A model generated the notes under the pieces. The model saw only the letters and a program-made list of their open reading frames with translations. It did not search any database and was not told the DNA's origin. A program made the position numbers and the translations under genes. From an uncultured Gammaproteobacteria bacterium (GTDB taxonomy: Bacteria > Patescibacteriota > Patescibacteriia > Patescibacteriales > UBA12465), in contig CAZIJG010000004.1 in NCBI GenBank assembly GCA_964539545.1, forward strand, positions 8,054-72,053: a stretch of DNA of 64,000 nt, given 5' to 3'. This document shows positions 1-61,993 of the stretch, in pieces (position 1 is the stretch's first letter; every line of letters starts with the position of its first letter).

Positions 1-677
1 CCCAGATGTTGTCTCGAATGGTTATTCGTTTTTGTGAGAGGAAAGGTTGGTCTGTAGAAATTATTGAAAATACTCCTGGACAAGAAGCTGGTATTAAGCG
101 CATGGTGTTAAAGATTGATGGCCATTGGGCTTATGGTTATTTAAGAAGTGAAAATGGCGTACATAGGTTGGTTAGAATCTCTCCGTTTGATGCAGAAGCC
201 ATGCGTCATACTTCGTTTGCTAAAATAGAGGTTATCCCAGAGTTACCGGAAGAAACTGAGATTGAGCTGAAAGACGAAGATTTACGTGTTGATGTCTATC
301 GATCTTCTGGTCCTGGTGGTCAGAGTGTGAATACTACCGACTCGGCAGTTAGAATTGTTCATATCCCAACTAAAATATCAGTAGCTTCTCAAACAGAACG
401 TTCTCAGCATCAGAATAGAGAAATTGCCATGAAGTTACTTAAATCCAAGTTATTCCAGCTAGAGGAGGAGAAAAAACAAGCGGAAGAAGCAAAATTAAAA
501 GGGAAAGTTCAGAAAGCAGAGTGGGGCAAGCAGATTCGATCCTATGTTCTACAGCCATATAGAATGGTAAAAGATCATCGTACGGGATATAGCACTGATC
601 AAGTGAATGACATTTTAGACGGTGGTTTAGAAGTTTTTATTGAAAGTTATTTAAAATGGAGTAGAGAGAAAAAGTAA
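1..677 (+). CDS. prfB: peptide chain release factor 2, C-terminal part (5' end outside window)
   Basis: Frame open to window edge; RF2 SPF tripeptide (RISPFDA) and GGQ motif (SSGPGGQSVN). Confidence 0.9.
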   Translation, partial: QMLSRMVIRFCERKGWSVEIIENTPGQEAGIKRMVLKIDGHWAYGYLRSENGVHRLVRISPFDAEAMRHTSFAKIEVIPELPEETEIELKDEDLRVDVYRSSGPGGQSVNTTDSAVRIVHIPTKISVASQTERSQHQNREIAMKLLKSKLFQLEEEKKQAEEAKLKGKVQKAEWGKQIRSYVLQPYRMVKDHRTGYSTDQVNDILDGGLEVFIESYLKWSREKK

Positions 678-716
678 TTTAGAAAAATTTAATATACTAT
701 AGTTTAAAATAGCGGC

Positions 717-2036
717 ATGAAGAGCCGCTATTTAGTTTTAATTTTTGGATTAGTTTTTTTAAGGATATTGTTGTTTCCAATTGCGAATTCGGATTATCAG
801 TTGGTTTTAGGTCAACATCAGTTTAAGGCAATAATCTGTGAAGAGCCCAAGCGTTCATTCCATAAGCAAGAACTAATTTTATGTTCTAGTTTAGTCAGCT
901 CCAGGATTCTAGTTCAGACTGAGACCTTTCCACGCTATGGGCTTTATCAAAAATTAGAATTGAGCTGTAATTTGCAAGAGCCAGAAAACTTTTCTGATTT
1001 TGATTATAAAAATTATTTAGCTAAACAGGGAATTCATTTGTTGTGTTTTTATCCGAGGGTTCTTAGTATTCAGGATTCTGGAATTAATGATGCAAAGTAT
1101 TTAAGTTGGAAAATAAAAGAAAATATTGCCCGGAGAATAGATAGACATTTGTTAGAACCGGGGGCCGGTTTAGCTAAGGCTATGTTGTTGGGTTATCGTA
1201 GCGAAATAGCTGAAGAACTGGAAAGGGGGATGATTAAGGCTGGTTTAGCACATATTTTAGCTATTTCTGGATTACATATTTCTATATTTATTGGCTTATT
1301 ATTGTGGTTATTCAAGAAGCTTAGATTTAAATGGTTAATTATATCTGTTATTTTATTGTTTTACTTGTTTATTTTAGGATTTCCTATTTCAGCAATTCGG
1401 GCTGTAATTATGTCGTTGTTACTGTTTACTGGTCGGAGTTGGGCTAGTTTGAGGGTGAGATTTTTATTAGCGTTGGCGATAACGCTATTAATATATCCTA
1501 GGGCATTTCAGGAAGTAGGTTTTCAAATGTCTTTTTTGGCTGTGGCTGGTTTAATTTGGATATATCCTTTATTGGACAATTGGTCTTATAGGGTATTCGG
1601 TTATTGGTCATTGAGATTACGAATGTCAAAAATGGTTCCTTTTGACTTTTCCTTAGAACAACACAAGAGTTTTAAGTTTATTATTCAGGGTTGTTTAGCA
1701 TCGTTATCTGTGAATATAGTTTTGTGGCCGCTATTGTCATATTATTTTTCTGGTTATAATATTTTGTCTGTTGTTATTAACGTTTTAGCTTTGCCAGTTT
1801 TGCCGCTATTACTTAGCGGATTGTATATGAGTGTAATAGTGCCAGTGATTTTTTATGCTTGTTATTGGCCATTACAATATTTTCAATTATTAAGTCAGAT
1901 ATATGTTGGATATTTTGAATTCATGATTAGTAGGGAATTATTGCTAGTATATTATTTTGTTCTCCTATTTTTCGTGGTTAGGGTAACAAAAAACAGGTCT
2001 GTTAAACCTGGTTTTTGTAGAAAAATACTAGATTAA
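717..2036 (+). CDS. comEC: ComEC/Rec2-family DNA internalisation membrane protein (competence domain only)
   Basis: 439 aa polytopic membrane protein with ComEC signature GLAHILAISGLHISIF. Confidence 0.75.
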   Translation: MKSRYLVLIFGLVFLRILLFPIANSDYQLVLGQHQFKAIICEEPKRSFHKQELILCSSLVSSRILVQTETFPRYGLYQKLELSCNLQEPENFSDFDYKNYLAKQGIHLLCFYPRVLSIQDSGINDAKYLSWKIKENIARRIDRHLLEPGAGLAKAMLLGYRSEIAEELERGMIKAGLAHILAISGLHISIFIGLLLWLFKKLRFKWLIISVILLFYLFILGFPISAIRAVIMSLLLFTGRSWASLRVRFLLALAITLLIYPRAFQEVGFQMSFLAVAGLIWIYPLLDNWSYRVFGYWSLRLRMSKMVPFDFSLEQHKSFKFIIQGCLASLSVNIVLWPLLSYYFSGYNILSVVINVLALPVLPLLLSGLYMSVIVPVIFYACYWPLQYFQLLSQIYVGYFEFMISRELLLVYYFVLLFFVVRVTKNRSVKPGFCRKILD

Positions 2037-2212
2037 TTTTTTTCTTTCTTTGCTAGAGTTCTTAAACAAGAGGTACAAATCTTAAGTTTTTGATTTCCCA
2101 CCTTCTTAGACTGCAAGTTAATATGTTGACGTTTCAGGGTCTTAACTTTAGAGTGAGAGCGCTTTGCGCCTTTAGTAGAACCTCTTCCGCATAGATCACA
2201 TTTTCGAGCCAT
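2033..2212 (-). CDS. rpmB: 50S ribosomal protein L28
   Basis: 59-codon ORF below ORF-track cutoff, hand-translated MARKCDLCGRGSTKGAKRSHSKVKTLKRQHINLQSKK...; L28-like N-terminus; converges on comEC and overlaps its stop by 4 nt. Confidence 0.8.
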   Translation of the reverse strand: MARKCDLCGRGSTKGAKRSHSKVKTLKRQHINLQSKKVGNQKLKICTSCLRTLAKKEKN

Positions 2213-2299
2213 ATCTTTTCATTTTTATTTCTAAATTTAGATAAAACAATCCTAACACGCTTTGCGTGCAAAAGCAAGTTGTGTTAGAGTGAGGATATT

Positions 2300-2938
2300 A
2301 TGATACAACTTTTTCAAATAATTGTTTTAATATTTTCGGCCGTTATTCATGAATATATGCATGGTTGGATGGCTGATAGATTGGGCGATGATACTGCCAA
2401 GAGAGCAGGGAGACTAACTTTAAATCCTTTGGTTCATCTTGATATGTTTGGCTCAATTATCTTACCTTTGCTATTAATTTTCTCTGGAGTAGGTGTTATT
2501 TTTGGCTGGGCTAAACCGGTGCCATATAATCCTAATAATCTTCGAGATTCTAAATGGGGGTCTGCAAAGGTAGCGGCCGCTGGTCCATTGGGTAACCTAA
2601 TTATTGCTGTGTTTTTTGGTATATTCCTGAGAGTTGTTCCTCTGGGTAACCCTATGTTGATAGGATTGATAGCAATTATTATATTTATCAATTTAATTCT
2701 GATGATATTTAATTTAGTACCGATTCCTCCTTTAGATGGTTCTAAAATATTGATGGCCTTCTTGCCATTTTCTTGGCAATTAAAATTTATGCGCTGGGAA
2801 AAGTATGGAATGATCTTAGTATTGTTGTTTCTTTTTGTAGCTATAGATCTTATTTTACCGATCACTTTATTCCTAATGAAGATAATTGTTGGTAGTCAGG
2901 CTTTCATGACTATTAGCTTAATGTTCGGTTTTGGCTAA
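2300..2938 (+). CDS. site-2 protease family (peptidase M50) membrane metalloprotease
   Basis: HExxH (HEYMHGW) plus NLVPIPPLDGSK motif, multiple TM segments. Confidence 0.8.
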   Translation: MIQLFQIIVLIFSAVIHEYMHGWMADRLGDDTAKRAGRLTLNPLVHLDMFGSIILPLLLIFSGVGVIFGWAKPVPYNPNNLRDSKWGSAKVAAAGPLGNLIIAVFFGIFLRVVPLGNPMLIGLIAIIIFINLILMIFNLVPIPPLDGSKILMAFLPFSWQLKFMRWEKYGMILVLLFLFVAIDLILPITLFLMKIIVGSQAFMTISLMFGFG

Positions 2939-3104
2939 AATTAGAAGTGAATAATGATTTCATGTTTGATTTTTCCAACTAGGCTCCTGGTGTTTATTCT
3001 GTTCAAGTAAATGGAAAAATCACTAGAATAATTAAGCAATAACCAGTTTTGTATTCAATATTTTATAAAGCATCTTTTTTTACAAAATGCTTTTTTTTCT
3101 GCTC

Positions 3105-3133
3105 TTGACTTATTTTTTATCTTTTGTTAAATT
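3105..3133 (+). promoter_or_regulatory. candidate sigma70 promoter of str operon
   Basis: TTGACT (3105-3110), 17 nt spacer, TAAATT (3128-3133), ~75 nt upstream of rpsL. Confidence 0.4.
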
Positions 3134-3207
3134 AGATGCATAAGAATTTGTCCCGTAATACGGGATTATTTTTATCCTATAAAAATTAAATTTATAAATA
3201 ATTTATT

Positions 3208-3627
3208 ATGCCTACTATTAACCAATTAGTCAGAAACGGTAGAAAGACAGCTGTTAAAAGACAGAAGACTTTGGCTCTGCATACTAATGTAGATAGTTTG
3301 CATCGTCGAAAAAATGTTACTAAAGGTGGGGCTCCTTTTAAGCAAGGAGTTTGTTTAAAGGTAACCACAATGACTCCTAAGAAACCTAACTCAGCTTTAA
3401 GAAAGATTGCTAGAGTTAGATTGTCCAACGGTATGGAAGTTACTGCTTATATTCCTGGTATGGGACATAATTTACAAGAACATTCCGTGGTATTAGTCAA
3501 AGGTGGACGTACTAAGGATTTGGCTGGTGTGCGTTATAAAGTAGTTAGGGGCGTTTACGATGCTCAAGGTGTAGAAGGCCGTAAACAAAGCCGCAGTAGC
3601 TATGGTACTAAGAAAAATCAAGCTTAA
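3208..3627 (+). CDS. rpsL: 30S ribosomal protein S12
   Basis: MPTINQL..., [16 protein letters not shown] motif; first gene of str operon. Confidence 0.97.
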
Positions 3628-39469: not shown

Positions 39470-39490
39470 GAGTCTAAGTTTTTGCTATTT

Positions 39491-40756
39491 ATGTCCAAAA
39501 CAAAGATTAAAATTAAGAAAAAAAATACTTCGAAAAAGAAAGCTATCAAGAAGAAGGTTGTTATTAAAAAGAAGATCGTTAAGCCAATAAAGAAAGTTTT
39601 TAAGACGGTTACCAAGAAGAAAGCTACAGTTAAAAAGGCAACTAAAAAAATAATTAAAAGAGTTATTACTCAGCCAGACGTAGAAAAGCTGGGCAAGCTA
39701 ATTGTTAAGGGTCGTTCCCGTGGTTTTGTGACTGAGACTGAATTGTTATTCCTATTTCCAGAGATTGAAGAATATGTTTATAATTATGAGATTTTTTTAG
39801 GTGATCTTCAAGATAGCGGTGTTCGTATTATTGAAGATGTTGGTAGTATTCTAGGTCTAGAAGAAAGAGCTAGAGAAGAAAAGGAGTCAAATGGAGAACA
39901 GTTAATTGGTAGTGTGGATATGTCTAAGCTTAGTGAAGACTCTATTCAGATGTATCTGAAAGAAATTGGTAAAGTACCATTATTAACCGCAGATGAAGAA
40001 GTAGAGCTAGCTAAGAGAAAAGAAAAGGGTGAAAGAGAGGCAGAAAAAGGTATTATTGAAGCAAATCTGAGATTGGTAGTTTCAATTGCTAAGAAATTTG
40101 CTGGTGCTAAAGGTTTAAGTCTATTAGATCTTATTCAGGAGGGTAATATTGGCTTATTTAGAGCCGTAGAGAAGTTCGAGTATAGGAAGGGCTATAAATT
40201 TTCTACTTACGCCACCTGGTGGATTAGACAGGCTATTACTAGAGCTCTAGCTGATCAGTCTAGAACCATTCGTATTCCAGTGCATATGGTAGAAACTATT
40301 AATAAGTTTCAACAAGTGCAGAAAAGCTTGATTCAAGAATTAGGCAGAGAGCCCCTACCAGAAGAAATTGCTGCTGAAATGGATGAAGATCTAGATAAGG
40401 TTCGATATATTATTAAAATTTCTCAAGATACTATTTCTCTAGAAACCACTATTGGAGATGATGAAGAAGATTCTACCTTAGAAGACTTTATTGAAGATGT
40501 GAAAAACATTTCCCCCGATAGAGCAGCCGCTTTACAACTATTAAAAGATTATGTAAAAGAAATTATAATCAATCTGTCTCCTCGTGAGCAGAAGATTTTA
40601 GAAATGCGTTTTGGCTTAACCGATGGCGTAGCTCATACCCTGGAAGAAGTAGGACAAGAATTTGATGTTACTAGAGAGAGAATTAGACAGATTGAAGCTA
40701 AGAGTTTGGAGAAGATTAGAAAGCTCAGAGGATTAAATAAACTAAAAGACTACTAA
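39491..40756 (+). CDS. rpoD: RNA polymerase sigma-70 factor with Lys-rich N-terminal region
   Basis: Region 2 ([37 protein letters not shown]) and region 4 ([20 protein letters not shown]). Confidence 0.93.
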
Positions 40757-50344: not shown

Positions 50345-50679
50345 TCATCACCTCCCCTTGTATTACTAAGCATCAAACAATTGTGACGCTATTGTGACTG
50401 AAAGGTGATTAAAAATGGTAAATACTGGTAACTTCTGGCGACTTAGAACAGGGAATAATAATAGCTAATATTACGATAATTTAGCTATTATTAGCAACAA
50501 TGTCAGATAGTCCATTTCGTGCTTCGAATCCGACCCCGGGAGCAAGCAAAAATAGGCTAAGGTTAGCCTATTTTTTAGTATCAAAGACATCAAGATGTCA
50601 CAATTTGTGACGTTATTGTGTCGGTTTTTTCTTAGATTTTAAAGAAAAAATTATTTTTAGAATCCTAACCCGAAATTAC
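50345..50679 (+). repeat. junction unit C: arm + perfect core (50523-50544) + terminator + integrase relic + variant half core (50659-50675)
   Basis: ATTGTGACGCTATTGTGAC at 50380-50398; TGTCACAATTTGTGACGTTATTGTGTCGG at 50596-50624. Confidence 0.85.
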
Positions 50680-50819
50680 TTTTATTATGTTTTTGGCTGT
50701 GATAAAGGGGATCAAATTTAAGAGTAAGGTCGAAAGGCCTATTTTTGTTTTATTTTTAGCCCAATTTTGATATAATAGTTATGTAAAAATAATAAAAAAA
50801 TAATTTATAAAATAGAATT

Positions 50820-52003: not shown

Positions 52004-52209
52004 ACTTAGTGCCACCTCCCATCACCTCTCCTTATATTGCACGCCTCACAAAAAGTTGTGACGCTATTGTGACTGAAAGGTGATTAAAAGTGGTAAATGC
52101 TGGTAACTTCTGGCGACTTAGGACAGGGAAGAATAATAGCTAATATTACGATAATTTAGCTAGTATTAGCAATAATATTTAATAGTCCATTTCGTGCTTC
52201 GAATCTAAT
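52004..52209 (+). repeat. junction unit D: arm + diverged core (TTCGAATCTAATCCCGGGAT)
   Basis: TTGTGACGCTATTGTGAC at 52048-52066; core variant at 52190-52209 directly abuts a promoter. Confidence 0.85.
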
Positions 52210-52215
52210 CCCGGG

Positions 52216-52244
52216 ATAGGATATTGACAAAAGTATATTTTCAC
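52216..52244 (+). promoter_or_regulatory. cassette promoter module copy 1
   Basis: TTGACA (52216-52221), 17 nt, TATGCT (52239-52244), then TTTTTATTAC. Confidence 0.6.
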
Positions 52245-52300
52245 GGTATGCTTTTTTATTACATTTAGATACACAAATTGTTCATTAAAAAACTATAACT

Positions 52301-52939
52301 ATGTCCAGTAAAAAAGAAAGAAGAAAGTTCAAAGCTTTTTACAACAATCAACAAACAAACAAACAGAATGTAGCCGTAGTGGCCCACTCTACCAACAGAA
52401 AGGCCAGACGTCCATCACAGGAAATTGGCGACGATATCAGAAAAATGTTGGGTAAATTAAGAGATCATTCTGTTGTTTTTCCTGAGGTTAATTCCGAGCC
52501 GATTAAATTGGGAAAACTTTATGAAGTAACAGTTAAAATTGGAGAAGATGAAGCTCAAGAAAGGCGATTGGTATATGCAACTGTAGTGCTTCCATTTGAA
52601 GAGAGTGAAGATTGCTTGACGGGATTAACAGAATTGTTTGTTAATTCAAAAAAGAAAGTTATTACTGCTCCAGAAGTGGAAAGTAAAGCCGATGTTTCTC
52701 CAGTTTTAAAAGTGTTATATCCACTTCCAATGGGCGGATATGCTATGACACCAATAACAATTTTTAACTGGTATGGTAAAGAAGAAATTGTTATGTCAAA
52801 CATGAAAGAGCCTCCTTTAGAAATTATTGAAGTAATAAATGCTCCATACTGTCATATTTTTGATATGGTTTGGTCAGGATCCTACATCGGAAGACAAATT
52901 GACGGAGTAGAGCTTTTTGAAGAAGCTAAGGTGGCATAA
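52301..52939 (+). CDS. hypothetical protein
   Basis: 212 aa ORF, basic N-terminus. Confidence 0.45.
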   Translation: MSSKKERRKFKAFYNNQQTNKQNVAVVAHSTNRKARRPSQEIGDDIRKMLGKLRDHSVVFPEVNSEPIKLGKLYEVTVKIGEDEAQERRLVYATVVLPFEESEDCLTGLTELFVNSKKKVITAPEVESKADVSPVLKVLYPLPMGGYAMTPITIFNWYGKEEIVMSNMKEPPLEIIEVINAPYCHIFDMVWSGSYIGRQIDGVELFEEAKVA

Positions 52940-52966
52940 AAAATAACCTATAAAATTAGGATTTAT

Positions 52967-52997
52967 AACCGCATAATCAATATGCGGTTCTTTTTTT
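52967..52997 (+). terminator. cassette terminator
   Basis: AACCGCATA/TATGCGGTT stem plus T7. Confidence 0.8.
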
Positions 52998-53004
52998 ACT
53001 AAAT

Positions 53005-53335
53005 TTTTAATCACCTCCCCTTGTATTACTAAGCATCAAAAAATTGTGACGCTATTGTGACTGAAAGGTGATTAAAAGTGGTAAATGCTGGTAACTTCTG
53101 GCGACTTAGAACAGGGAAGAATAATCGCTAACATTACGATAATTTAGCTAGTATTAGCAACAATATCCGATAGTCCATTTCGTGCTTCGAATCCGACCCC
53201 GGGAGCAAGCAAAAATAGGCTAACATTAGCCTATTTTTTAGTATCAAAGACATAAAAATGTCACAATTTGTGACGTTATTGTGACGTAAAATCCCAATGT
53301 TTTAGACATTTAGATTTTTCTTGTATCCGACCCCA
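53005..53335 (+). repeat. junction unit E (reference copy): arm + perfect core (53186-53207) + terminator + integrase relic (53259-53286) + half core (53320-53335)
   Basis: ATTGTGAC at 53043 and 53054; TGGTAA/TGGTAA/TGGCGA at 53079, 53089 and 53099; core identical to tRNA-Asn 3' end. Confidence 0.9.
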
Positions 53336-53402
53336 GAGAGTATTTATATATAAAATATGGTATAATTAAAAAAAGATTATTAATTACTCTAATAATAAAT
53401 CT

Positions 53403-54101
53403 ATGTTAGAAAATTTTCCTGTCGCTCAAACTAAAAAAGAAAAACCTAAGAAAACATTTAAAGAAAGGATTTTACAAAATAAAGCCGCAAAAATCGCAGC
53501 CATCTTTTTAATTATGCTTGGATCTGCTAAGTCGTTAGAGGCAAGCGGTAATACTGAAGGTGGACCTGACCCAGAAAATGTGAAGCACAAGATCGAAGAT
53601 GCTAGGGGGTTCTTAAAGCAAATAATTCCAGACACAAAAAATAGTGATAATGCTGCATCTCATACACTTAACGGTCGAAATATAAGTACTTGTAAGTATC
53701 CCACTGGTCAAGAAGTGACAGTAGCTGATAATAATGATTATATTATAGTTTCAACTGATGAGGGTAGAAAAGTTTTTTACGATGATGATGCCGATGGCTC
53801 TTTGGATAGGGTGGTGCTTAATAAGGGCGAAGAAGAAGAAAGAATTTTTGTTAAAAATGCAATGTATGCATTTCAATCAATGGAGGAAATGGCTGAACAA
53901 GCTGAAGTAATAGCAGATTTAATGCCTAAGCAGGTTAGTGTTCTTAATCTTAATCATGAAAACGGAGAAGCTCAATTTGTAGATATGTCTGACGGCGCGA
54001 GCGGAACATTTACTGAAGATGACGCCGATGGTCTAATTAATACAATGCAAGATCGCTATACTCAAGAATTAGAAGAAATTTCTCAGGATTTAAATAAATA
54101 A
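53403..54101 (+). CDS. hypothetical secreted/anchored acidic protein
   Basis: Hydrophobic segment AAKIAAIFLIMLGSAKSLEA; TGgTATAAT box at 53358-53366. Confidence 0.45.
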   Translation: MLENFPVAQTKKEKPKKTFKERILQNKAAKIAAIFLIMLGSAKSLEASGNTEGGPDPENVKHKIEDARGFLKQIIPDTKNSDNAASHTLNGRNISTCKYPTGQEVTVADNNDYIIVSTDEGRKVFYDDDADGSLDRVVLNKGEEEERIFVKNAMYAFQSMEEMAEQAEVIADLMPKQVSVLNLNHENGEAQFVDMSDGASGTFTEDDADGLINTMQDRYTQELEEISQDLNK

Positions 54102-54134
54102 AATAGTCTATATTTAAGTGATTTTTTTTATTAC

Positions 54135-54336
54135 TTTCACCACCCCTCCTTGTATTGCCAGCGAAACAGAAAGTTGTGACGCTATTGTGACTGAAAGGTG
54201 ATTAAAAGTGGTAAATGCTGGTAACTTCTGGTAACTTAGAACAGGGAATAATAATAGCTAATATTACGATAATTTAGCTAGTATTAGTAACAATATCTGA
54301 TAGTCCATTTAGTACTTCGAATCCGACCCCGGGAGC
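54135..54336 (+). repeat. junction unit F: arm + near-perfect core (54316-54336, 21/22)
   Basis: TTGTGACGCTATTGTGAC at 54174-54191; followed by hairpin terminator at 54341-54371. Confidence 0.85.
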
Positions 54337-54414
54337 TATTAGAAATACCCTATAAAATTAGGGTATTTTTTGTTACTCATTTTTTTAATGTTTGATTTTT
54401 GGTATAATAAAAGA

Positions 54415-54834
54415 ATGAAAATCTTCAACGAAAAAATCTGGAGAAGGCATACGAGCCCTCTTAGTGGTTGGACGCGTGTAATTGCTTTCTTTTTGATACC
54501 TATCCTAATTTGGACTCAAAATTGGTATCTACTGTTGGTCCTGCTAGCTTTTTTTGTAGTTAATCCAATTCTTTTTTCTGAACCAAAAAATAAAGATAAT
54601 TGGATGAGCAAATCCATATTAGGAGAAGAACTATGGACTAAAAAAGGGGTTTTGCAAAAGGATTTTCCTACTGTACTAAATCTCTTAAATGGACTTTTCT
54701 TTTTTATACTAATCTACGGTGCGTATAATAACTTATTGGAAGTAACAATTTTTTCAACTATATTATCAAGTGTCTTTAAACTTTGGTATTTAGATAGAAT
54801 GGTTTTATATTATGATAATAAAAAAAATAACTAA
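54415..54834 (+). CDS. hypothetical membrane protein
   Basis: ATG at 54415 downstream of TGgTATAAT (54400-54408); 3-4 TM. Confidence 0.5.
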   Translation: MKIFNEKIWRRHTSPLSGWTRVIAFFLIPILIWTQNWYLLLVLLAFFVVNPILFSEPKNKDNWMSKSILGEELWTKKGVLQKDFPTVLNLLNGLFFFILIYGAYNNLLEVTIFSTILSSVFKLWYLDRMVLYYDNKKNN

Positions 54835-55585
54835 TTGGAAAATATTTTGGGTATTATTTACTGCTGGAATGTTCGGAGTTATAGCAATATTTCCTTTTTT
54901 GCTCACAACGCAGGGGGATGTATTAAGAGAGCTTCCCATTCCATTATCCGTGGTTCTTCTTGCCAGTGCTATGCAAAGCGCTGTACTTATAGGAGTTGCT
55001 ATATTTGTTGGATTACGACTAGGTAAAAAAATTGGTTTTGGAACACCTCTTATTTCTTCTTGGCTTTCAGGAGAGTCTGTTAGAGAAAAACTTAAGTCAG
55101 TTGCGAAGGTGTCAATAGGGCTGGGAGCATTGAGTGGTATTTTAATTATCGGTTTTGATTATATATTCAACCTGTTTATAGGGCCTATATCTACTGTAAG
55201 CACACCATTGTGGCAGGGTTTTTTGGCATCATTCTACGGAGGTGTTGTCGAGGAAATACTATTAAGACTATTTTTTGTAACTCTATTGGTTTGGATTATG
55301 TGGAAGTTTTCAAAATCTAAGAATATTAAACCTCCCATTACAACTATCTGGATTGCGATAATTTCTGCTTCAGTAATATTTGGATTAGGCCATTTGCCCG
55401 CAACCGCATTACTTACTACAATCACTCCAGTCATTATTTTTCGTGCAGTATTATTAAATGGAATTGGTGGTGTTATTTTTGGCTGGCTATATTGGAAGAA
55501 AGGATTTGAATCGGCAATAATTGCTCACTTCACTACAGATATAATTCTTCTTACTATCTTTCCATTATTATTGAATTTAAACTAA
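54812..55585 (+). CDS. CPBP-family intramembrane glutamic endopeptidase (CAAX protease/bacteriocin-processing type)
   Basis: GGVVEEILLRLFF (EExxxR), FGLGH and HFTTD motifs. Confidence 0.75.
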   Translation: MIIKKITNWKIFWVLFTAGMFGVIAIFPFLLTTQGDVLRELPIPLSVVLLASAMQSAVLIGVAIFVGLRLGKKIGFGTPLISSWLSGESVREKLKSVAKVSIGLGALSGILIIGFDYIFNLFIGPISTVSTPLWQGFLASFYGGVVEEILLRLFFVTLLVWIMWKFSKSKNIKPPITTIWIAIISASVIFGLGHLPATALLTTITPVIIFRAVLLNGIGGVIFGWLYWKKGFESAIIAHFTTDIILLTIFPLLLNLN

Positions 55586-55589
55586 TTTT

Positions 55590-56105
55590 ATGAAAAAAAC
55601 GATATTATATATAGCTCAAAGTTTGGATGGTTTTGTCGCCACCAAAGACGGGAGCGTATCTTGGCTTGATGATTATTTTGATGTTGACTTTGGTAATTAT
55701 AGTTATGATAAGTTTGAGAAAGGTATTGATACAATAGTTCAGGGAAGTACAACCTACGATCAATTTAAACCAAAATATCCAGGAAAGAATAGTTATGTTT
55801 TTGCCAGTGATGCAGATGGTAGAAATGAGGAGGGAACAATTTTTGTAAAAGGAGAGGTAAAAAAGTTCGTTGATGATCTGGATGAGAAAACTCATGAAAA
55901 TATTTGGTTGGTGGGAGGACCAACATTATTAGCAGGATTTTTAAATAAAAAGCTTGTAGATGAAATGATTATTTTTACGATGCCAGTTTTATTGAAAGAA
56001 GGTATCTCTTTATTCAGTAATATCAAAGTAAGTCCTAATATTTCATTGCAAAAGGTTAAAAATTATGAAAAAGGTGTGATGGTCTCGCATTATAATATTA
56101 AATAG
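55590..56105 (+). CDS. dihydrofolate reductase-family (RibD C-terminal domain) protein
   Basis: ILYIAQSLDGFVATKDGSVSWLD N-terminus; WLVGGPTL. Confidence 0.7.
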   Translation: MKKTILYIAQSLDGFVATKDGSVSWLDDYFDVDFGNYSYDKFEKGIDTIVQGSTTYDQFKPKYPGKNSYVFASDADGRNEEGTIFVKGEVKKFVDDLDEKTHENIWLVGGPTLLAGFLNKKLVDEMIIFTMPVLLKEGISLFSNIKVSPNISLQKVKNYEKGVMVSHYNIK

Positions 56106-56106
56106 T

Positions 56107-56226
56107 ATGAAAAGAGTTTCTGCTGGATACCGAATCACTATTAGTATTGTGATTGCTATAATACTTCTTCTTGTCTGGATGGAGCTAGCTGTTGGCATTT
56201 TTGGGACTCCATGGGCAGGATCTTAA
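56107..56226 (+). CDS. possible 39-aa single-TM peptide
   Basis: Hand-translated MKRVSAGYRITISIVIAIILLLVWMELAVGIFGTPWAGS; ATG is 2 nt after the preceding stop. Confidence 0.3.
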   Translation: MKRVSAGYRITISIVIAIILLLVWMELAVGIFGTPWAGS

Positions 56227-56236
56227 TACGCACAAG

Positions 56237-56434
56237 ATATCACCTCTCCCTGTATTACTAAGCATCAAAAAATTGTGACGCTATTGTGACTGAAAGGTGA
56301 TTAAAAGTGGTAAATGCTGGTAACTTCTGGCGACTTAGAACAGGGAAGAATAATCGCTAACATTACGATAATTTAGCTAGTATTAGCAACAATATCCAAT
56401 AGTCCATTTGGTGCTTCGAATCCTAACCCTTGAG
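56237..56434 (+). repeat. junction unit G: arm + diverged core (TTCGAATCCTAACCCTTGAG)
   Basis: ATTGTGACGCTATTGTGAC at 56272-56290; differs from unit E arm at ~4 positions by eye. Confidence 0.85.
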
Positions 56435-56441
56435 TAAAGTC

Positions 56442-56470
56442 TTGACAAAAGTATATCAATATGGTATACT
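56442..56470 (+). promoter_or_regulatory. cassette promoter module copy 2
   Basis: TTGACA (56442-56447), 17 nt, TATACT (56465-56470), then TTTTTGATAG. Confidence 0.6.
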
Positions 56471-56494
56471 TTTTTGATAGATAAAATTCTATTT

Positions 56495-56722
56495 ATGAAC
56501 CTTAAAACTATAAAAATGGGAAAGAAAGCATTTACTGTATTTTTTACAGATCAGCCAGGTGAGGCGTCGATTACTCAGTTAATCAAATTTATAAACGAAC
56601 ATAATCTTGAGGCTTCCGACTACCACTTGATAGCTTTGCCTTCGGGTATAGCTGAAGGAGGATTTATTAAAGGCGCAAATATTAGTTGTATTTATCATTC
56701 AGAAAAAGAGTTATCCTGTTAA
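56495..56722 (+). CDS. hypothetical small protein
   Basis: Track start 56474 (TTG) lies at the predicted TSS, so ATG 56495 (or 56516) is preferred. Confidence 0.4.
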   Translation: MNLKTIKMGKKAFTVFFTDQPGEASITQLIKFINEHNLEASDYHLIALPSGIAEGGFIKGANISCIYHSEKELSC

Positions 56723-56810
56723 TTAAATTTTAAAACCATCTTAGTTATAGATGGTTTTTTTCTATATTTTATTATTATTTCTTCTCCTTTTCAATAATAC
56801 CCCAATCAAT

Positions 56811-56920
56811 GGTTCTAATCGTGTTCTTAATGGGGAGTATCCAAAAATAGGCTAATATTAATCTATTTTTTAGTATCAAAGATATAAAAATGTTACAATT
56901 TGTGACGCTATCGCAGCTTA
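56811..56920 (+). repeat. collapsed junction unit: degenerate T-loop-like core + terminator + integrase relic
   Basis: GGTTCTAATC..., AAAAATAGGCTAATATTAATCTATTTTTT, TGTTACAATTTGTGACGCTATCG. Confidence 0.6.
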
Positions 56921-56949
56921 TTGACGAAGGCATACTTTTACGGTATGCT
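56921..56949 (+). promoter_or_regulatory. cassette promoter module copy 3
   Basis: TTGACG (56921-56926), 17 nt, TATGCT (56944-56949), then TTTTTAATAC. Confidence 0.55.
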
Positions 56950-57004
56950 TTTTTAATACCTAAAATATATAAATTGTTCTTATAAATAAAAACGGGAGGT
57001 TAAT

Positions 57005-57334
57005 ATGTTAAAATGTAGTGATTGTGGATATAAAGGTGTGAATCTTTCTCCGAGTTATGGTGATGGTACAGCCAGATGTCCTCGTTGTAATGGTGTTTTC
57101 GAGGGTATACTCGCTCGAAATGCTTTGTACGATGATTTCTCAACAGTAAAAGAGGGAAATACTTTAAAGAAAGTTAATTGGGGAACAGGTGAGACGCCTC
57201 AGGATGTCGTAGTGGAAGAAGTGGTTTCTGAAATGATTATTATCAGAGTTGATAAAAGGTTAATAAAATTTGACAGCACCACAGGCGTTGCGGTGGATGA
57301 TGACAAATTAGAGTTCCTTACTTTTAACATCTAG
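57005..57334 (+). CDS. hypothetical zinc-ribbon protein
   Basis: CSDC...CPRC; SD GGGAGG 6 nt upstream. Confidence 0.5.
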   Translation: MLKCSDCGYKGVNLSPSYGDGTARCPRCNGVFEGILARNALYDDFSTVKEGNTLKKVNWGTGETPQDVVVEEVVSEMIIIRVDKRLIKFDSTTGVAVDDDKLEFLTFNI

Positions 57335-57433
57335 CAAAAAACATCTTTTCATAAAACGGTGAGGCTTAAGTCAATATCCGTTTTTTTTTATTTCAAGAGT
57401 ATGTTTGATAAAATAATACTGTTTAGATAAAAG

Positions 57434-57612
57434 TTTCGAAGTAAGTCCACTGCCGAGAGCCATCATTTTTTGGGTGTGTCAGACAGGCATATTTTGTTTG
57501 ATATTAGCTAAAAAATAAAGAGATATGATTTAGGTCATGCTTTTTTGTTGGAGTTAAATGAGTGAAAAAAGACTGTAAATAAAGGAGATTTTTAGTTCTA
57601 GTCCGAGTCCTG
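57434..57612 (+). repeat. variant junction unit X1 (second repeat family)
   Basis: TTTCGAAGTAAGTCCACTGCCGAGAGCCA core-like start; the following ~150 nt align with 61606-61775. Confidence 0.6.
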
Positions 57613-57669
57613 TTTTAATGATAATAAAAATGTTATAATTGCCATGATAAGGCATTAAGGCTAAAAATT

Positions 57670-58275
57670 ATGAAATTATTACTAACCTCGACGGGACTGG
57701 CAAACGAAAATGTAAAGAGTAGATTTATCTCTTTATTTAATAAAGATTTTTCCAAAATTAAACTATTATTTGTTGTTTCTGCCGCTGAAAAACCAAAAGA
57801 GAAGTGGTATATTAATAAAAGCGAAGAGGAGCTATTAGCTCTAGGGATTAAGAAAGAGAATTTTGTAACTTATCACACTGGACAAAAGTCAAGTAAAGAA
57901 GTTCTAGATACTGTTGATTTGATATATGTTTGTGGTGGTAATACTTTTCTTCTCCTAGAAGAAATAAAAAAAAGTGGTTTAGACAAAGATATAATTGGAA
58001 TGATTAAAAAGGAAGTATTTTATATTGGTGCTAGTGCTGGTAGTCTTATCGTTACTCCTAATATTAAAATAGCTGAGCCTTGGGATCCAAATGTTAATGG
58101 TTTAAAAGATTTAAGTGGCTTTAATTTAACAGATTTTACGATTGCTCCTCATTATACCAAAGAGGAGGAAAAAAATATTAAGAATATGGAAAGTATTTTA
58201 GGGATAGAGGTAAAAAGGATAACCGATGATCAGGCTATATTATTGATAGACGATAATATAGAGGTTATCAATTAA
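57670..58275 (+). CDS. peptidase S51 (dipeptidase E-like)
   Basis: YVCGGNTFLLL and IGASAGSLIV (Ser nucleophile) motifs; TGtTATAAT at 57631-57639. Confidence 0.7.
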   Translation: MKLLLTSTGLANENVKSRFISLFNKDFSKIKLLFVVSAAEKPKEKWYINKSEEELLALGIKKENFVTYHTGQKSSKEVLDTVDLIYVCGGNTFLLLEEIKKSGLDKDIIGMIKKEVFYIGASAGSLIVTPNIKIAEPWDPNVNGLKDLSGFNLTDFTIAPHYTKEEEKNIKNMESILGIEVKRITDDQAILLIDDNIEVIN

Positions 58276-58279
58276 TAAT

Positions 58280-58748
58280 ATGGTAGAAATTAAAAACTTA
58301 TGTAATTTTTTAGTAAAAGCTAAAAAAGCTATATATGCCAGTGGTGATGAGAATACTAAAATAAAAGAAAGTGATAAATCAACTACTTTGATTTTTGAAG
58401 AAGGAGACTTTAAATATCATGATAACTATTTTGGTGGAGAGCCTTATGGGGGGTAGAGAAGTTGTATTCTTTCAAGATGATCCTATTTATATAATGACTT
58501 ATTATGGATGGGTTAATAAGAACATTTCTAATATTGGCGAGGTCTATAAAGTATTGCAGAAGGCTCTATCTTTAATACCAGAAGATAAGCCATATCGTGG
58601 TCCAAAAGAATATACTGAAGGAGATTATATCTATTCTAACAATTTTACTGGCGAGGTAGATAATTTTTTTGGAGAAGAGACTCTCAAGTATAAGGGCAAG
58701 GAAATATATAAAGCTAAATATACAGGTGGGCTAGTTGATCAAAGATAG
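58280..58748 (+). pseudogene. DUF5680-like gene split by a frameshift in a G6 run
   Basis: Frame 1 (58280..58456) ends ...YHDNYFGGEPYGG*; the +1 frame continues GGREVVFFQDDPIYIMTYYGWV... (track ORF 58395..58748); removing one G at 58448-58453 fuses them. Confidence 0.6.
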
Positions 58749-58753
58749 GAGTT

Positions 58754-58868
58754 GGATTCGAACTGAATTATAATTTAGATTTTTAAAAATATTTAGCTAA
58801 TATTAGATATGGTAGTAGATATTTGTATTATTAAATCGACCTCTAGTTCGAATTGTATTCTCGGAGCA
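58754..58868 (+). repeat. junction unit H: strongly degenerate arm + core variant (TTCGAATTGTATTCTCGGAGCA, 58847-58868)
   Basis: Retains TTAGCTAATATTAG and T-loop-like TTCGAA; abuts a promoter module. Confidence 0.55.
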
Positions 58869-58872
58869 AATC

Positions 58873-58902
58873 TTGACAAATAGTGTATCTAAATGGTACA
58901 CT
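58873..58902 (+). promoter_or_regulatory. cassette promoter module copy 4
   Basis: TTGACA (58873-58878), 18 nt, TACACT (58897-58902), then TTTTTGATAT. Confidence 0.55.
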
Positions 58903-58944
58903 TTTTTGATATTTCAATTTATTGTTCATTAAAATTAAATTAGT

Positions 58945-60126
58945 ATGGCTAGAACTGGTAAGGCACTATCGCCTATATTTGTTAAAAATTTAGTTATTAA
59001 AGTGGCTAGGCGTGAGGGTATTCTTTTAAACGAAAATAGATTAGATGCAATTGATAAAATTTTATCAACTTTACCGCCTAACCCCAATCCCACTTGGATT
59101 ATTAGGTGGTATAGTTACAAAACTAAGAAAGAAATTTTGAAACGTTTTCAGTATAAATTAAAAGCTAAAGTTTTGTGTACTGGAGTTTATAAGGAAATTT
59201 TTTATTTTCTTAATCAAGACGAGTTTATTCGTTTAACCCAATTGTTAATTTCTAACCCACCAGAAAAAATTAATCCTCAATGGATTAGAAAAAATGCTTA
59301 CGCATTGTCTGTATCTATTAGGCGTACTTGTGCAGGAGTGAGAACCCTTGATGGTCGAATTGACTGGGAATTTGTTTTTAAGAAATTAAAAGTAAATAAT
59401 TTTTGTTACCGGAAGACAATTCCTCGAAGAGGTGATAAAGAGAAAATTATAAAGGATTTAGTTAATGTATTAGAGACGGAAGACCCAGAGATTTTTTATT
59501 ATGAATGGTTAGAAAAAAATTGTGGACCGATTGCAAAACAATTACAGATAATGTTCAAAAGTAATTGGTTATTTGTAATATCCCTATTAGATAAAAAATG
59601 GCAGAAACGCTGGCGTTATTATGGGGCTGTACAATCAGTCGATTGGTACATTAATAGGAAAGAGTTTAGCAGAGTTCTCGAAAGGTATCGCCATAAATTA
59701 TATTTGGTATATGTTGATATTAAGAGTGAGAGAAATTTACGTAATAAAATGATGTTAGATTTTTTGTTTATTGTTCAGAAAGGTAATTTATTAGCTAGGG
59801 ATTTTTTAATAGATAGCGTGAAATTGACCTTGTATGATAGTGATCAGTTATCCGATTGGCATAAGTTTAACGGTTTATTAGAGGAAAAAATAGAAAGATG
59901 TATTTTACGATTTGATTTAGTCAAAGGTGATAATTTTTATAATTATTTGTATAAATCAGTTAAATTTTTTGCTTTACCCTTTGTTGGTCTAAACGCCTTT
60001 TCCATTAATGAATCTACTTGTGATTCTTCTCAAGAAATTTCTGAATCTCTATTAACACAATCTCAGAAGGAAGATGTTGAGGAGTTTATCCGCGGCATTA
60101 AGTTAGCCTTAGTGCAGGAAAATTAA
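58945..60126 (+). CDS. hypothetical protein
   Basis: 393 aa ORF, Trp/Arg-rich, no motif recognised. Confidence 0.5.
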   Translation: MARTGKALSPIFVKNLVIKVARREGILLNENRLDAIDKILSTLPPNPNPTWIIRWYSYKTKKEILKRFQYKLKAKVLCTGVYKEIFYFLNQDEFIRLTQLLISNPPEKINPQWIRKNAYALSVSIRRTCAGVRTLDGRIDWEFVFKKLKVNNFCYRKTIPRRGDKEKIIKDLVNVLETEDPEIFYYEWLEKNCGPIAKQLQIMFKSNWLFVISLLDKKWQKRWRYYGAVQSVDWYINRKEFSRVLERYRHKLYLVYVDIKSERNLRNKMMLDFLFIVQKGNLLARDFLIDSVKLTLYDSDQLSDWHKFNGLLEEKIERCILRFDLVKGDNFYNYLYKSVKFFALPFVGLNAFSINESTCDSSQEISESLLTQSQKEDVEEFIRGIKLALVQEN

Positions 60127-60128
60127 CC

Positions 60129-60154
60129 AAGCCCATTAAAATAGTGGGCTTTTA
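60129..60154 (+). terminator. cassette terminator
   Basis: GCCCA/TGGGC stem plus TTTT. Confidence 0.65.
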
Positions 60155-60168
60155 TATTATTTAAATTT

Positions 60169-60367
60169 CCATCACCTCTCTTTGTATTGTCAGCGAAACA
60201 AAAAATTGTGACGCTATTGTGACTGAAAGATGATTAAAGGTGGTAAATACTAATAATTCCTGGCGACTTAGAACAGGGAAGAATAATCGCTAACATTACG
60301 ATAATTTAGCTAGTATTAGCAACAATATTTGATAGTTTATTTGGTGCTTCGAATCTGATTCCGAGAT
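60169..60367 (+). repeat. junction unit I: arm + diverged core (TTCGAATCTGATTCCGAGAT)
   Basis: ATTGTGACGCTATTGTGAC at 60205-60223; core variant at 60348-60367. Confidence 0.85.
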
Positions 60368-60369
60368 TA

Positions 60370-60398
60370 TTGACAAAAATATATCGACATGGTATGTT
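60370..60398 (+). promoter_or_regulatory. cassette promoter module copy 5
   Basis: TTGACA (60370-60375), 17 nt, TATGTT (60393-60398), then TTTTTTGATAC. Confidence 0.6.
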
Positions 60399-60447
60399 TT
60401 TTTGATACTTAATATATTATTTAACATTCAAAAAAGCGGAGGTAGTA

Positions 60448-61005
60448 ATGAATTGGTCAGTTTTTTTAATTGTAGTTCTTTTAAATTCTTTACTTTGCTC
60501 ACTTCAATACTTAGTAGAGCGAATAGATAAAACAAAAGGTAGAATTGTGCCACGACATTCTATTATTCCTGGAACAGACCAAAAATTTCTTTATTGGGAA
60601 GATTTTTATACTCAAACCTATGGAGATTTTTTTGGACTAGTATGGATAATGAATGGTTTTGCTCATTTATTAATAAAGGGGCAGATTACGAGTTTGGAGT
60701 GGTTTATTTTTATATTTTTTACTTTAGTTTCTATATTTATTTTCTTGTATTCAAATTTGAAATCAGGGCATAAACCAGACTGGGGATATCCATCTCAAGG
60801 CAGGATTAGTTGGGGTGGAATTACACATTTACCCTATTTTGGTAGCTTATTTGCTATGTCAATCCTGTGTTTAATAAATATTTTTAGTGGTGAAATAAGA
60901 GGAGTCTTACTTTGGACAACTTTAAGCGGCGGGTTTATTTATATAATCACCATAATCGTAGATATTAAATTAGGACATTTTGACTCAATCAAGAATTATA
61001 AATAA
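60448..61005 (+). CDS. hypothetical membrane protein
   Basis: 5-6 TM; SD GGAGG 7 nt upstream. Confidence 0.5.
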   Translation: MNWSVFLIVVLLNSLLCSLQYLVERIDKTKGRIVPRHSIIPGTDQKFLYWEDFYTQTYGDFFGLVWIMNGFAHLLIKGQITSLEWFIFIFFTLVSIFIFLYSNLKSGHKPDWGYPSQGRISWGGITHLPYFGSLFAMSILCLINIFSGEIRGVLLWTTLSGGFIYIITIIVDIKLGHFDSIKNYK

Positions 61006-61118
61006 GAATAATTCTGAAAAATAAAAGAATAAAAATATTATAAGGAAGTTTAATATTGAACTTCCTTTTTTCTTACTTAAAAGTCAATCTTAGTATATCA
61101 ATCTTATCAATATTGAAG

Positions 61119-61146
61119 TTTTGAAGTAAGTTCACTACCGAGAGCA
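61119..61146 (+). repeat. variant core X2
   Basis: TTTTGAAGTAAGTTCACTACCGAGAGCA, close to the X1 core at 57434-57462. Confidence 0.5.
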
Positions 61147-61245
61147 TCGTTCAAAAATGCTTACTTTATAGGTATTTTTGTGTATATTCTGGTTTAAATC
61201 CTTGTTTGGCACTTTACTATTATGGTATAATTTTTATATAAATCA

Positions 61246-61599
61246 ATGAATAAAAATATGGAAATTATAAAAAATAAAGAATGGATTAGAGGCAAGGAAT
61301 ATCGTAAGAGGATTTTGTTAGACAATTTCAGTAAAAATATTAATCTAATTGAAGATGTAATAATCCAGGCTCATGGAAGAGTTCCTTTACATTATCATGA
61401 TTTTACTGATGAAATTTTTTATATTGTTAAAAATTCAGCTGTTATGATTATTGATGATGAAAAATTTAAAGTTAGTGAAGGCGACATGATTTATGTGAAT
61501 AAAAACGAAAAACATGGTTTTGAAAATAAAAACGATTTAGAGCTAAAAATGATTGTTATGAAAATTAATTTTCAGAAGGGTGACTCCTATTTAAAATAG
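61246..61599 (+). CDS. cupin-domain protein
   Basis: HYHDFTDEIFYIV...EGDMIYVNKNEKHGFEN two-motif cupin pattern; TGgTATAAT at 61223-61231. Confidence 0.7.
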   Translation: MNKNMEIIKNKEWIRGKEYRKRILLDNFSKNINLIEDVIIQAHGRVPLHYHDFTDEIFYIVKNSAVMIIDDEKFKVSEGDMIYVNKNEKHGFENKNDLELKMIVMKINFQKGDSYLK

Positions 61600-61605
61600 C
61601 TCTAA

Positions 61606-61775
61606 CATAGTCCGTTCCCTCGAGCCAATACATTTTTGGTGCAGTAGACCGATATATATCGTTTAATGTTAGCCAAGAAGCAAAAAAGCATGACTCAGGT
61701 TATGTTTTTTTTGTTGTAATTAAATGGATAAGAAAGAATCGTAAATAAGAGGTATTGTGAGCTCGGATCCCATGG
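61606..61775 (+). repeat. variant junction unit X3
   Basis: CATAGTCCGTTCCCTCGAGCCA, then ~150 nt collinear with X1. Confidence 0.55.
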
Positions 61776-61993
61776 GAAGTAATTTAAAAGATTAGCATTT
61801 TGGATTTTTTAAATGAATAATGATGTAGGTTTGGGTTTTATTTAAAAAGGAGTAATTTGATATTATGTAGTAGTAGTTTTTATTTTTAGGCATGGTAATT
61901 GACAAAATATATTTATGGGTATACACTCATAATATAATAATTAATATATATCGTAATTATTGTTTGATGATTTTACGAAATATAAATAAATGT

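Follow-up and report, generated by a model that had tools for sequence, protein, structure and literature searches.

The 64,000-nucleotide stretch analysed here (the window; positions 8,054 to 72,053 of contig CAZIJG010000004.1) carries, on the 3' side of a tRNA-Asn gene, an island in which one complete integrase-bearing element is followed by at least ten integrase-less cassettes, five of them beginning with the same short promoter-like module; the question raised by this locus is what the module is, and how unrelated genes came to share it. In a first-pass annotation it had been proposed that complete elements lost everything between their attachment (att) core and the promoter of their cargo five times at one boundary, or else that the cassettes are genuinely devoid of integrase, and it had been speculated that the tail of the module doubles as a nick site for the replication protein (Rep) of the complete element. 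The data fit the second of these options. Each cassette is headed by a module built like a strong sigma-70, extended -10 promoter, and a further feature had gone unnoticed: spacer and '-10' pair with each other as the arms of a conserved, terminator-like hairpin, which is followed by a run of T. On balance, the explanation that we prefer is that the module is a head native to the cassettes, in which a terminator and a promoter would overlap on the same bases, and which would be moved together with its cassette by recombination at the cores.

The G+C content of the window is about 34% and its host belongs to the Patescibacteria, probably to the Falkowbacteria; related contigs are from Patescibacteria and are mostly labelled Falkowbacteria. 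From about 48.4 kb on, the island consists of an array of short units, most of which close with a conserved segment of about 200 nt, here named the P arm, which holds the direct repeat TTGTGAC-GCTA-TTGTGAC, and with a copy of the tRNA 3' end, TTCGAATCCGACCCCGGGAGC. Junctions between P arm and core lie at 48672, 50544, 52215, 53207, 54337, 56435, 58870 (diverged) and 60368. The features from which the array takes its cores are the following:

41420-41492, plus strand: tRNA-Asn(GTT) gene (ARAGORN and Rfam)
41472-41492, plus strand: att core, that is the tRNA-Asn 3' end TTCGAATCCGACCCCGGGAGC (repeat family D4), recurring down the island

The pattern TTGACR-N16-18-TAYNNTTTTT has exactly five matches in the window, at 52224, 56442, 56921, 58873 and 60370, all on the plus strand, where shuffles lead one to expect 0.02; a profile built from 23 module copies returns the same five sites only (E 1e-9 to 1e-14), a result which is partly circular, all five window copies being in the training set (two from the window and three via the near-identical locus L087). 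A consensus search with fixed spacing and 3 mismatches gave no match, because the length of the loop varies. The presence of five copies, with spacers of 17-18 nt as described in the first-pass annotation, is thus almost certainly real, and some of its details can be adjusted: the first copy had been placed at 52216, which is the junction, TTGACA starting at 52224; the direct fusion to the core, described for all five, holds for the four modules that begin 3-7 nt past a diverged copy of the tRNA-Asn 3' end, whereas the module at 56921 follows a remnant of about 85 nt (56833-56918), itself located after a different, very diverged core; and the conserved tail TTTTTTGATA, counted in three to four copies, is found in three of the five, the other two reading TTTTTTATTA and TTTTTTAATA. 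In order, the spacers measure 17, 17, 17, 18 and 17 nt and the -10 boxes read TATGCT, TATACT, TATGCT, TACACT and TATGTT. The five modules and the cargo open reading frames (ORFs) behind them are listed here with the folding energy of each module in kcal/mol:

52224-52300, plus strand: module 1, TTGACA-17-TATGCT, hairpin AAAAGTATA/TATGCTTTT and T-run, leader with ATTGTTCATTAAAA (-7.1, z -4.5)
52301-52939, plus strand: cargo ORF of cassette 1, 212 aa, no Pfam family
56442-56494, plus strand: module 2, TTGACA-17-TG-n-TATACT, 12-bp hairpin and T-run (-9.9, z -4.8)
56495-56722, plus strand: cargo ORF of cassette 2, 75 aa, no Pfam family
56921-57004, plus strand: module 3, TTGACG-17-TATGCT, stem GCATAC/GTATGC (a compensatory variant) and T-run (-11.6, z -6.1)
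57005-57334, plus strand: cargo ORF of cassette 3, 109 aa, with CxxC pairs, no Pfam family
58873-58944, plus strand: module 4, TTGACA-18-TG-n-TACACT, stem AGTGTA/TACACT (a compensatory variant) and T-run (-10.6, z -4.2; also terminator-like by the scanner)
58945-60126, plus strand: cargo ORF of cassette 4, 393 aa, no Pfam family
60370-60447, plus strand: module 5, TTGACA-17-TG-n-TATGTT, hairpin AAAAATATA/TATGTTTTT (A:T instead of G:C) and T-run (-7.2, z -3.1)
60448-61005, plus strand: cargo ORF of cassette 5, a 185-aa membrane protein with many Falkowbacteria homologues in other tRNA-linked islets

Two scans of metagenome collections with the arm-type site, together with later look-ups, brought the number of non-redundant module copies to about 25. 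The window also holds, at 61899-61927 and upstream of a DUF5320 gene, a module-like promoter sequence, TTGACAAAATATATTTATGGGTATACACT (TTGACA-17-TACACT), which has no T-run and is not matched by the module profile.

The spacer bases after the -35 (AAAAGTATA...) are complementary to the '-10' (...TATACTTTT), forming the arms of a hairpin after which the T-run comes. On the plus strand the five copies fold with -7.1 to -11.6 kcal/mol (z -3.1 to -6.1) and are followed by 5-7 T; the minus strand folds much less well. At the same position, the hairpin of the complete element after the tRNA has an energy of -11.9 and that of the type A ends (another kind of left end, see below) of -10.0, equal to the energies of the modules. 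The stems vary and yet stay complementary (GTATA/TATAC, GCATAC/GTATGC, GTGTA/TACAC, ATAGC/GCTAT, TTATA/TATAA); indeed, the arms of one copy pair better with each other than with the arms of other copies (9.3 vs 7.8 contiguous pairs; -7.8 vs -5.5 kcal/mol), and 0 of 20,000 permutations were as good. In an unfitted MAFFT alignment 83% of the cells are paired, compared with 79.0±1.2 in shuffles (1 in 500 of which reach this value) and with 46-70% in slid controls, and double changes are present in 5 of 11 stem pairs. The internal non-Watson-Crick pairs on the plus strand include 16 G·T and 4 A·C, an excess which points to folding of the plus strand, the one transcribed from the tRNA. RNAalifold predicted no structure from the MAFFT alignment of 23 copies, because the 5' arm slips its register by 1-2 nt between copies; it was replaced by the comparison of self and cross pairing of the arms and by the count on a user-defined structure.

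The position of the hairpin along the island suggests what its role may be. When junctions are aligned, the module falls where a terminator hairpin sits after the tRNA gene and at other junctions; in an unbiased sample of about 32 junctions between P arm and core, about 20 continue directly with a plain terminator hairpin and about 7 with the module. Integration into a tRNA 3' end exchanges whatever lies downstream of the gene for element sequence, and so the element must bring a terminator. Locus L100 (5600-6165, minus strand) is a one-cassette islet composed of tRNA-Ser(TGA), module, 72-aa ORF, terminator and a direct repeat of the tRNA-Ser 3' end: the module begins 2 nt past the genuine tRNA-Ser gene and is the only terminator candidate after it. 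This adjacency, and the slot shared with plain terminators, indicate that the head occupies the tRNA-terminator slot, and that it does so with at least two att specificities. In other left ends (L012/L070, at 5640, L082 and L102) a terminator hairpin is followed by a separate promoter resembling TTGACA-17-TATAAT and then by the cargo; the position after the core and the order of terminator, promoter and cargo are the same as for the module, but the two signals stand side by side over about 70 nt, whereas the module merges them in 33 nt, the hairpin lying within the spacer and the -10. We therefore lean, without great assurance, towards the view that the module hairpin works as a terminator. 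The sequences that precede the modules, and one left end of type A for comparison, are these:

52018-52217, plus strand: P arm (about 200 nt, with arm-type site) and diverged core, tail of the preceding cassette, abutting module 1 (P-arm profile E 1e-50; alignment A1)
56238-56436, plus strand: P arm and diverged core before module 2 (P-arm profile E 6e-51)
56833-56918, plus strand: type A left-end remnant (terminator hairpin and truncated arm-type site) between the very diverged core and module 3 (repeat family D3; sequence)
58750-58870, plus strand: strongly diverged P arm and core before module 4 (alignment A1; missed by the P-arm profile)
60167-60367, plus strand: P arm and diverged core before module 5 (P-arm profile E 5e-48)
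48673-48805, plus strand: example of a type A left end (terminator hairpin, arm-type site, second partial core), following an intact core

The hairpin does not explain the other conserved features of the module, namely TTGAC, the spacing, the TG and the purine, which are those of a promoter. The -35 is TTGACA in four window copies and TTGACG in one, and of 21 AT-rich hairpin/T-run structures, gathered by criteria that did not include TTGAC, 15 are preceded by it. Among the 25 copies the spacer measures 17 nt in 21 and 18 nt in 4, the TG of an extended -10, located in the loop, is present in 17 (three of the five in the window), and the first purine lies 6 nt past the -10 in 20; the variable positions of the stem are those least important for a -10 (TAnnnT). 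In most copies an ATG follows at +70 to +78 from TTGACA, always on the same strand, in front of cargo ORFs that are mutually unrelated. The modules rank among the best consensus promoter matches of the region, module 2 being the best of all with 11 of 12 consensus positions, and two diverged copies, in L011 and L097, have kept promoter and leader without the hairpin. A gene for RpoD is present in the window (39482-40756), with regions 2, 3 and 4 (Pfam matches for the same gene in L001). Taken together, these features make it probable that the module works as a strong sigma-70, extended -10 promoter. A leader of about 40 nt (52259-52300, 58909-58944, 60405-60447 and about 15 copies elsewhere) has the consensus ATTGTTGAACATTAAAA or a sequence near it, often without a Shine-Dalgarno, and could be a translation signal or a regulatory site. 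Two other interpretations of the same bases were discarded: a divergent promoter on the minus strand, as no conserved -35 can be read from the sequence on that side, and a core-type or arm-type integrase site formed by TTGACA, which is absent from other left ends of the family and unlike the TTGTGAC repeat.

The following mechanism can be proposed. Elements with a tyrosine integrase would build the island by integrating into the 3' end of the tRNA gene, and the head of about 75 nt would be the left end of one cassette family, with two overlapping signals. Hairpin and T-run would stand in for the terminator of the tRNA itself and insulate the cassette from upstream transcription. The promoter would use the same bases: the -35 TTGACA just upstream of the stem, a spacer made of 5' arm and loop, with the TG in the loop, and a -10 coinciding with the 3' arm. 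Transcription would thus both end and start at the module, the start being at the first purine after the T-run, so that the tail TTTTTTGATA would represent a U-tract plus the initiating purine, with a leader of about 40 nt leading to an ATG at a fixed distance. The head would be inherited and moved with its cassette through recombination at the core, the integrase of a complete element acting in trans or in cis.

That the cassettes behave as units is indicated by synteny. A homologue of the cassette at 52216-53207, with a cargo of 75% amino-acid identity, is found in several samples between rbfA and a gene of the DHH family (L092-L096); the homology begins at the core TTCGAAT, covers the module and the ORF and ends after two thirds of the P arm, and the modules are near-identical from TTGACA to ATG. 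Locus L087 (JGI Ga0307992_1002705), from a near-identical strain, is 98.6% identical to 53199-59621 of the window and wholly different upstream of a breakpoint which lies inside the core: its first part (1-3600) has four ORFs of 115, 536, 237 and 206 aa in place of the window cassettes from 48.7 to 53.2 kb, the 536-aa ORF being P-loop NTPase-like with a GxxGxGKT motif and the 115-aa ORF being unannotated. L087 overlaps a contig carrying a different complete element. These replacement ORFs end in a different, short type of att (GGTTCTAAC…CCCGGAGC). In L022, an 8-kb locus in which no integrase was detected, tRNA-Asn is followed by module cassettes. The cassette between rbfA and the DHH gene, the breakpoint in the core of L087 and the arrangement of L022 together lead us to consider the head-bearing cassettes as units that recombine at cores; the cargo ORFs of the module cassettes have no match to an integrase or any other Pfam family, and copies of the core are found on both sides of each unit. 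In L100 no P arm of about 200 nt was detected, and the 5 kb around the islet hold no gene with a Pfam domain of integrases. Three other genomes have homologues of the 185-aa cargo in other tRNA-linked islets, without the full module directly upstream; this cargo therefore does not provide a second case of movement of a whole cassette, and it was by chance that the search led to L100.

Several observations speak against parts of this interpretation. As to termination, the stems are AT-rich: only one of the five (58882-58902) satisfies the rule of the scanner (at least 3 G:C pairs), the other four having 1-2, and termination may therefore be weak; moreover, at internal positions the hairpin is redundant, because upstream cassettes have terminators of their own. 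As to the promoter, sites of this kind are not enriched as a class in such an AT-rich region (76 vs 69±10 expected), and part of the -10 conservation seen among the extra copies stems from the search patterns with which they were gathered. As to mobility, the four window cores that abut modules (52215, 56435, 58870 and 60368) have kept TTCGAAT and have all decayed to its right (CTAAT, CTAAC, TGTAT and CTGAT vs CCGAC), while the four that abut other left ends (48672, 50544, 53207 and 54337) are all perfect; module-linked cores are mostly decayed elsewhere too, those of L027, L044 and L086 being intact, and the module end has no arm-type site for the integrase. The decay could reflect age, a lack of recombinational 'refreshing' or a different core specificity; together with the missing arm-type site, it suggests that the cassettes now recombine poorly and may be insertions that became fixed long ago. 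Neither circles nor other excised forms of a cassette were seen, and the arm-type site had no match in viral contigs, so that there is no evidence of packaged or free forms. Present-day mobility in trans is possible but somewhat less likely than not.

The module could instead be a promoter only, its inverted repeat being a by-product of an AT-rich palindromic spacer and -10, or of homogenisation by template switching, with no role in termination; L011 and L097, which keep promoter and leader without hairpin, would be readily understood in this way, as would the failure of most stems to pass a standard terminator filter and the redundancy of a terminator at internal positions. Of such a by-product one would expect neither changes that compensate each other nor an excess of G·T over A·C on one strand, nor a T-run that always follows the stem, the occupation of a slot which in about two thirds of the junctions belongs to plain terminators, or the fact that in L100 the module is the sole terminator candidate after the tRNA-Ser gene, and we regard this explanation as unlikely. 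Still less probable, in our opinion, is that the palindrome with its A and T tracts is a recombination or architectural site, corresponding to the P' arm of att and acting by binding protein, by bending DNA or as a folded single strand similar to attC. The module does abut the core, where P' functions lie, its hairpin is strand-specific, and the elements encode a rolling-circle Rep which could make single strands; however, stems that change freely while keeping complementarity are ill-suited to a sequence-specific protein site, the module has none of the TTGTGAC arm-type repeats of the P arms and of other P' arms, other left ends recombine without TTGACA, and nothing in this model would account for the TG, for a spacing of 17 nt, for a purine at +6 or for an ATG at constant distance.

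The two proposals of the first-pass annotation concern instead the relationship between the modules and the complete element, the only one in the window, which continues beyond its backbone with two further ORFs and a divergent region, followed by cargo on the plus strand:

41532-43610, minus strand: backbone of the sole complete element (Pfam; arm-site mapping)
41532-42644, minus strand: tyrosine integrase (Pfam)
41588-41605: arm-type site TTGTGACGCTATTGTGAC inside the 3' end of int (arm-site mapping)
42654-42851, minus strand: HTH_17 excisionase-like gene (Pfam)
42903-43610, minus strand: HUH Rep, family PF23343 (Pfam)
43809-43879, minus strand: candidate replication origin, TTAACTTGATTA (43809-43820) plus a GC-rich hairpin (about 43836-43879, -25.8 kcal/mol)

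The TTGTGAC-type repeat of the P arms recurs inside the 3' end of int, at 41588-41605, as expected for the arm-type integrase sites that flank a lambda-like attP; a look-up of the exact integrase protein returned only the same genome. If complete int-xis-rep elements had each lost their backbone at the same boundary, for example by recombination between the attL core and an internal site near the cargo promoter, one could understand why, in four units of the window and several loci elsewhere, the module starts 2-7 nt past a core copy, and deletions between repeated arm-type sites do occur in the family (the 'empty' att of L022 and the type A remnants). The backbone/cargo border has, however, neither a module nor a core-like site in the window element or in L073, L075, L085 and L027, and the stretch at 44775-44830, which had been described as a looser relative of the module, is not homologous to it (no profile match even at E<=10, no -10 at the right spacing and no fold, z -0.27); the repeated-deletion explanation is accordingly left unsupported. 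In addition, the same head occurs after a genuine tRNA-Ser gene, next to cores of another att class and at intact cores, and the heads and leaders in front of unrelated cargo share a common descent, which is unexpected for independent deletions. Patterned deletion is in our judgement improbable, and the head is probably a native end of the cassettes rather than the product of such a process. As for the nick site, the tail TTTTTTGATA had been compared with pC194/phiX174-type origins, whose nick consensus is CTTG^ATA, so that the module would double as a rolling-circle origin; TTTGATA differs from this consensus by one mismatch and is found in three window copies, the others reading TTTATTA (one) and TTTAATA (one). 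TTTGATA is at chance frequency in the window, with 35 occurrences where about 29 are expected, GATA is present in the tail of 9 of 25 copies and CTTGATA is absent from the element, and the tail would already be accounted for as U-tract and initiating purine. The Rep, to which pC194-type motifs had been attributed, matches PF23343 (REP_ORF2-G2P, 1.5e-22), RepSA and Helitron_like_N being below threshold, and no pC194-type or other Pfam family is matched at E<=0.01. The modules, finally, are in cassettes without Rep, five of them in one window, whereas TTAACTTGATTA and its hairpin, upstream of rep and in single copy, fit the part better; that the module is a nick site is extremely improbable.

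Indeed, four elements with a Rep (window, L075, L053 and L076), whose identity is otherwise about 45%, share the invariant block TTAACTTGATTA(T/A)A..CACAC upstream of rep, and the hairpins beside it are long, GC-rich and different in sequence. In eight other loci the 12-mer TTAACTTGATTA, which includes CTTGAT, occurs once per locus, near int, xis or rep wherever this could be mapped, and it is in no cassette of the window or of these loci. It is therefore a better origin candidate than the tail of the module, and the PF23343 Rep may have its double-strand origin or nick site there. A 79-aa ORF (43576-43815) has its TTG start within TTAACTTGATTA and may for this reason not be real. Within the cargo of the 'complete' element there is also a truncated P arm (47187-47251, profile positions 6-70, E 1e-11); the cargo would therefore be composite, with the NERD-domain gene and its neighbour (47246-48436) forming a separate, older unit.

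Other repeated sequences of the island accompany these units. Type A left ends are found also at 50545-50680 and 53208-53340, all preceded by an intact core; each is an 'empty' remnant of about 130 nt in which a terminator hairpin and an arm-type site are accompanied by a second, partial core, TATCCGACCCC. In L022 (1940-2010, minus strand) the P' arm-type site is joined straight to a P arm at their common TTGTGACGCTATTGTGAC, which looks like the deletion of the interior of a whole element between the two repeats. The motif GCTAAYATTA(GC) is present twice per P arm (for example at 53120-53170) and recurs in the terminator hairpin of type A ends, TAGGCTAACATTAGCCTA, whose stem-loop it forms (for example at 48683-48700); as a second site of protein binding it may serve Xis or a host factor. 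A second family of junction-like repeats, at 57395-57650, 61085-61250 and 61595-61800 (…AGTAAGT(C/T)CAC…CCGAGAGC…, with T-arm-like pieces such as GTTCTAGTCCGAG), delimits further cassettes (peptidase S51/DUF5680, cupin) and probably consists of att remnants of a different type of integrase. At 58280-58748 two ORFs of 58 and 117 aa overlap in different frames, the second matching DUF5680 over nearly the whole domain, and may be the frameshifted gene of an old cassette.

The head, the P arm of about 200 nt and TTGTGACGCTATTGTGAC are signatures with which such islands can be searched for in metagenomes, and through which the rules of promoters and terminators in an uncultivated phylum can be tested; templated deletion and a nick site in the module are replaced by testable alternatives, among them an origin candidate for the PF23343 Rep.

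Among the systems already known, cis-mobilizable elements (CIMEs) are decayed integrative and conjugative elements (ICEs) or integrative and mobilizable elements (IMEs), which have no integration genes, are flanked by att sites and accrete in tandem at tRNA genes, as in the ICESt1/ICESt3 type (PMC5704250). The units of the window resemble them in having no integration genes, in being flanked by att, in forming a tandem array with a complete element beside the tRNA 3' end, and in that the array varies between strains at att. They differ in that no sign of an origin by decay is seen, an ancient derivation being nevertheless conceivable: the module cassettes have no remnant of a backbone and the complete elements have no module, and the window cassettes are single-ORF units of 0.4-1.5 kb with a conserved head, usually a tail of about 200 nt and no conjugation context. 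The integrase-less units thus fit the operational definition of CIMEs, save for derivation by decay. For the tycheposons and tRNA-linked islands of Prochlorococcus, remnants have been described, and the text searched has no repeated head/tail cassette format and uses the word 'promoter' 0 times (bioRxiv 10.1101/2020.12.28.424599). The similarity concerns the complete element only, with its tyrosine recombinase, excisionase, small replication module and cargo by a tRNA, partial tRNA copies and older material in distal position; in both cases, closely related strains have different sequences in the proximal part of the island. The host phylum is different, the Rep is here an HUH protein of family PF23343, and the likeness is one of architecture. 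In the literature searched no description of such elements in Patescibacteria or the candidate phyla radiation (CPR) was found.

What is new in this locus is the repeated format of the cassettes, with a compact terminator/promoter head common to unrelated cargo and to two att specificities. As a tentative proposal, to which we give well less than even weight, this format may represent an integron-like cassette system built on tRNA-targeting integrases, in which unrelated, mostly orphan ORFs are joined, with their ATG at +70 to +78, to a portable head of about 75 nt (leader ATTGTTGAACATTAAAA) and to a recombination tail, with at least two tRNA specificities (Asn and Ser), and are recruited in trans by tycheposon-like int-xis-rep elements. 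Such a system would imply a process that attaches the head to new ORFs. If the explanation preferred above holds, the island would illustrate how uncultivated Patescibacteria with reduced genomes keep and express a shuffled pool of accessory genes: each cassette would bring a tRNA terminator and a strong promoter of its own, and could be expressed anywhere in the array. The resemblance to integrons lies in the array itself, whose cassettes are small, share one orientation, mostly consist of a single ORF, often an orphan, and have a conserved 3' recombination site, and in a tyrosine recombinase at the head of the array; the differences are that the target is here tRNA-Asn and not attI, that the 3' site is a lambda-type P arm (direct TTGTGAC repeats) with a tRNA core and not a folded attC, that the integrase is located inside a mobile element, and that the cassettes carry what appears to be their own promoter, whereas those of integrons are mostly promoterless.

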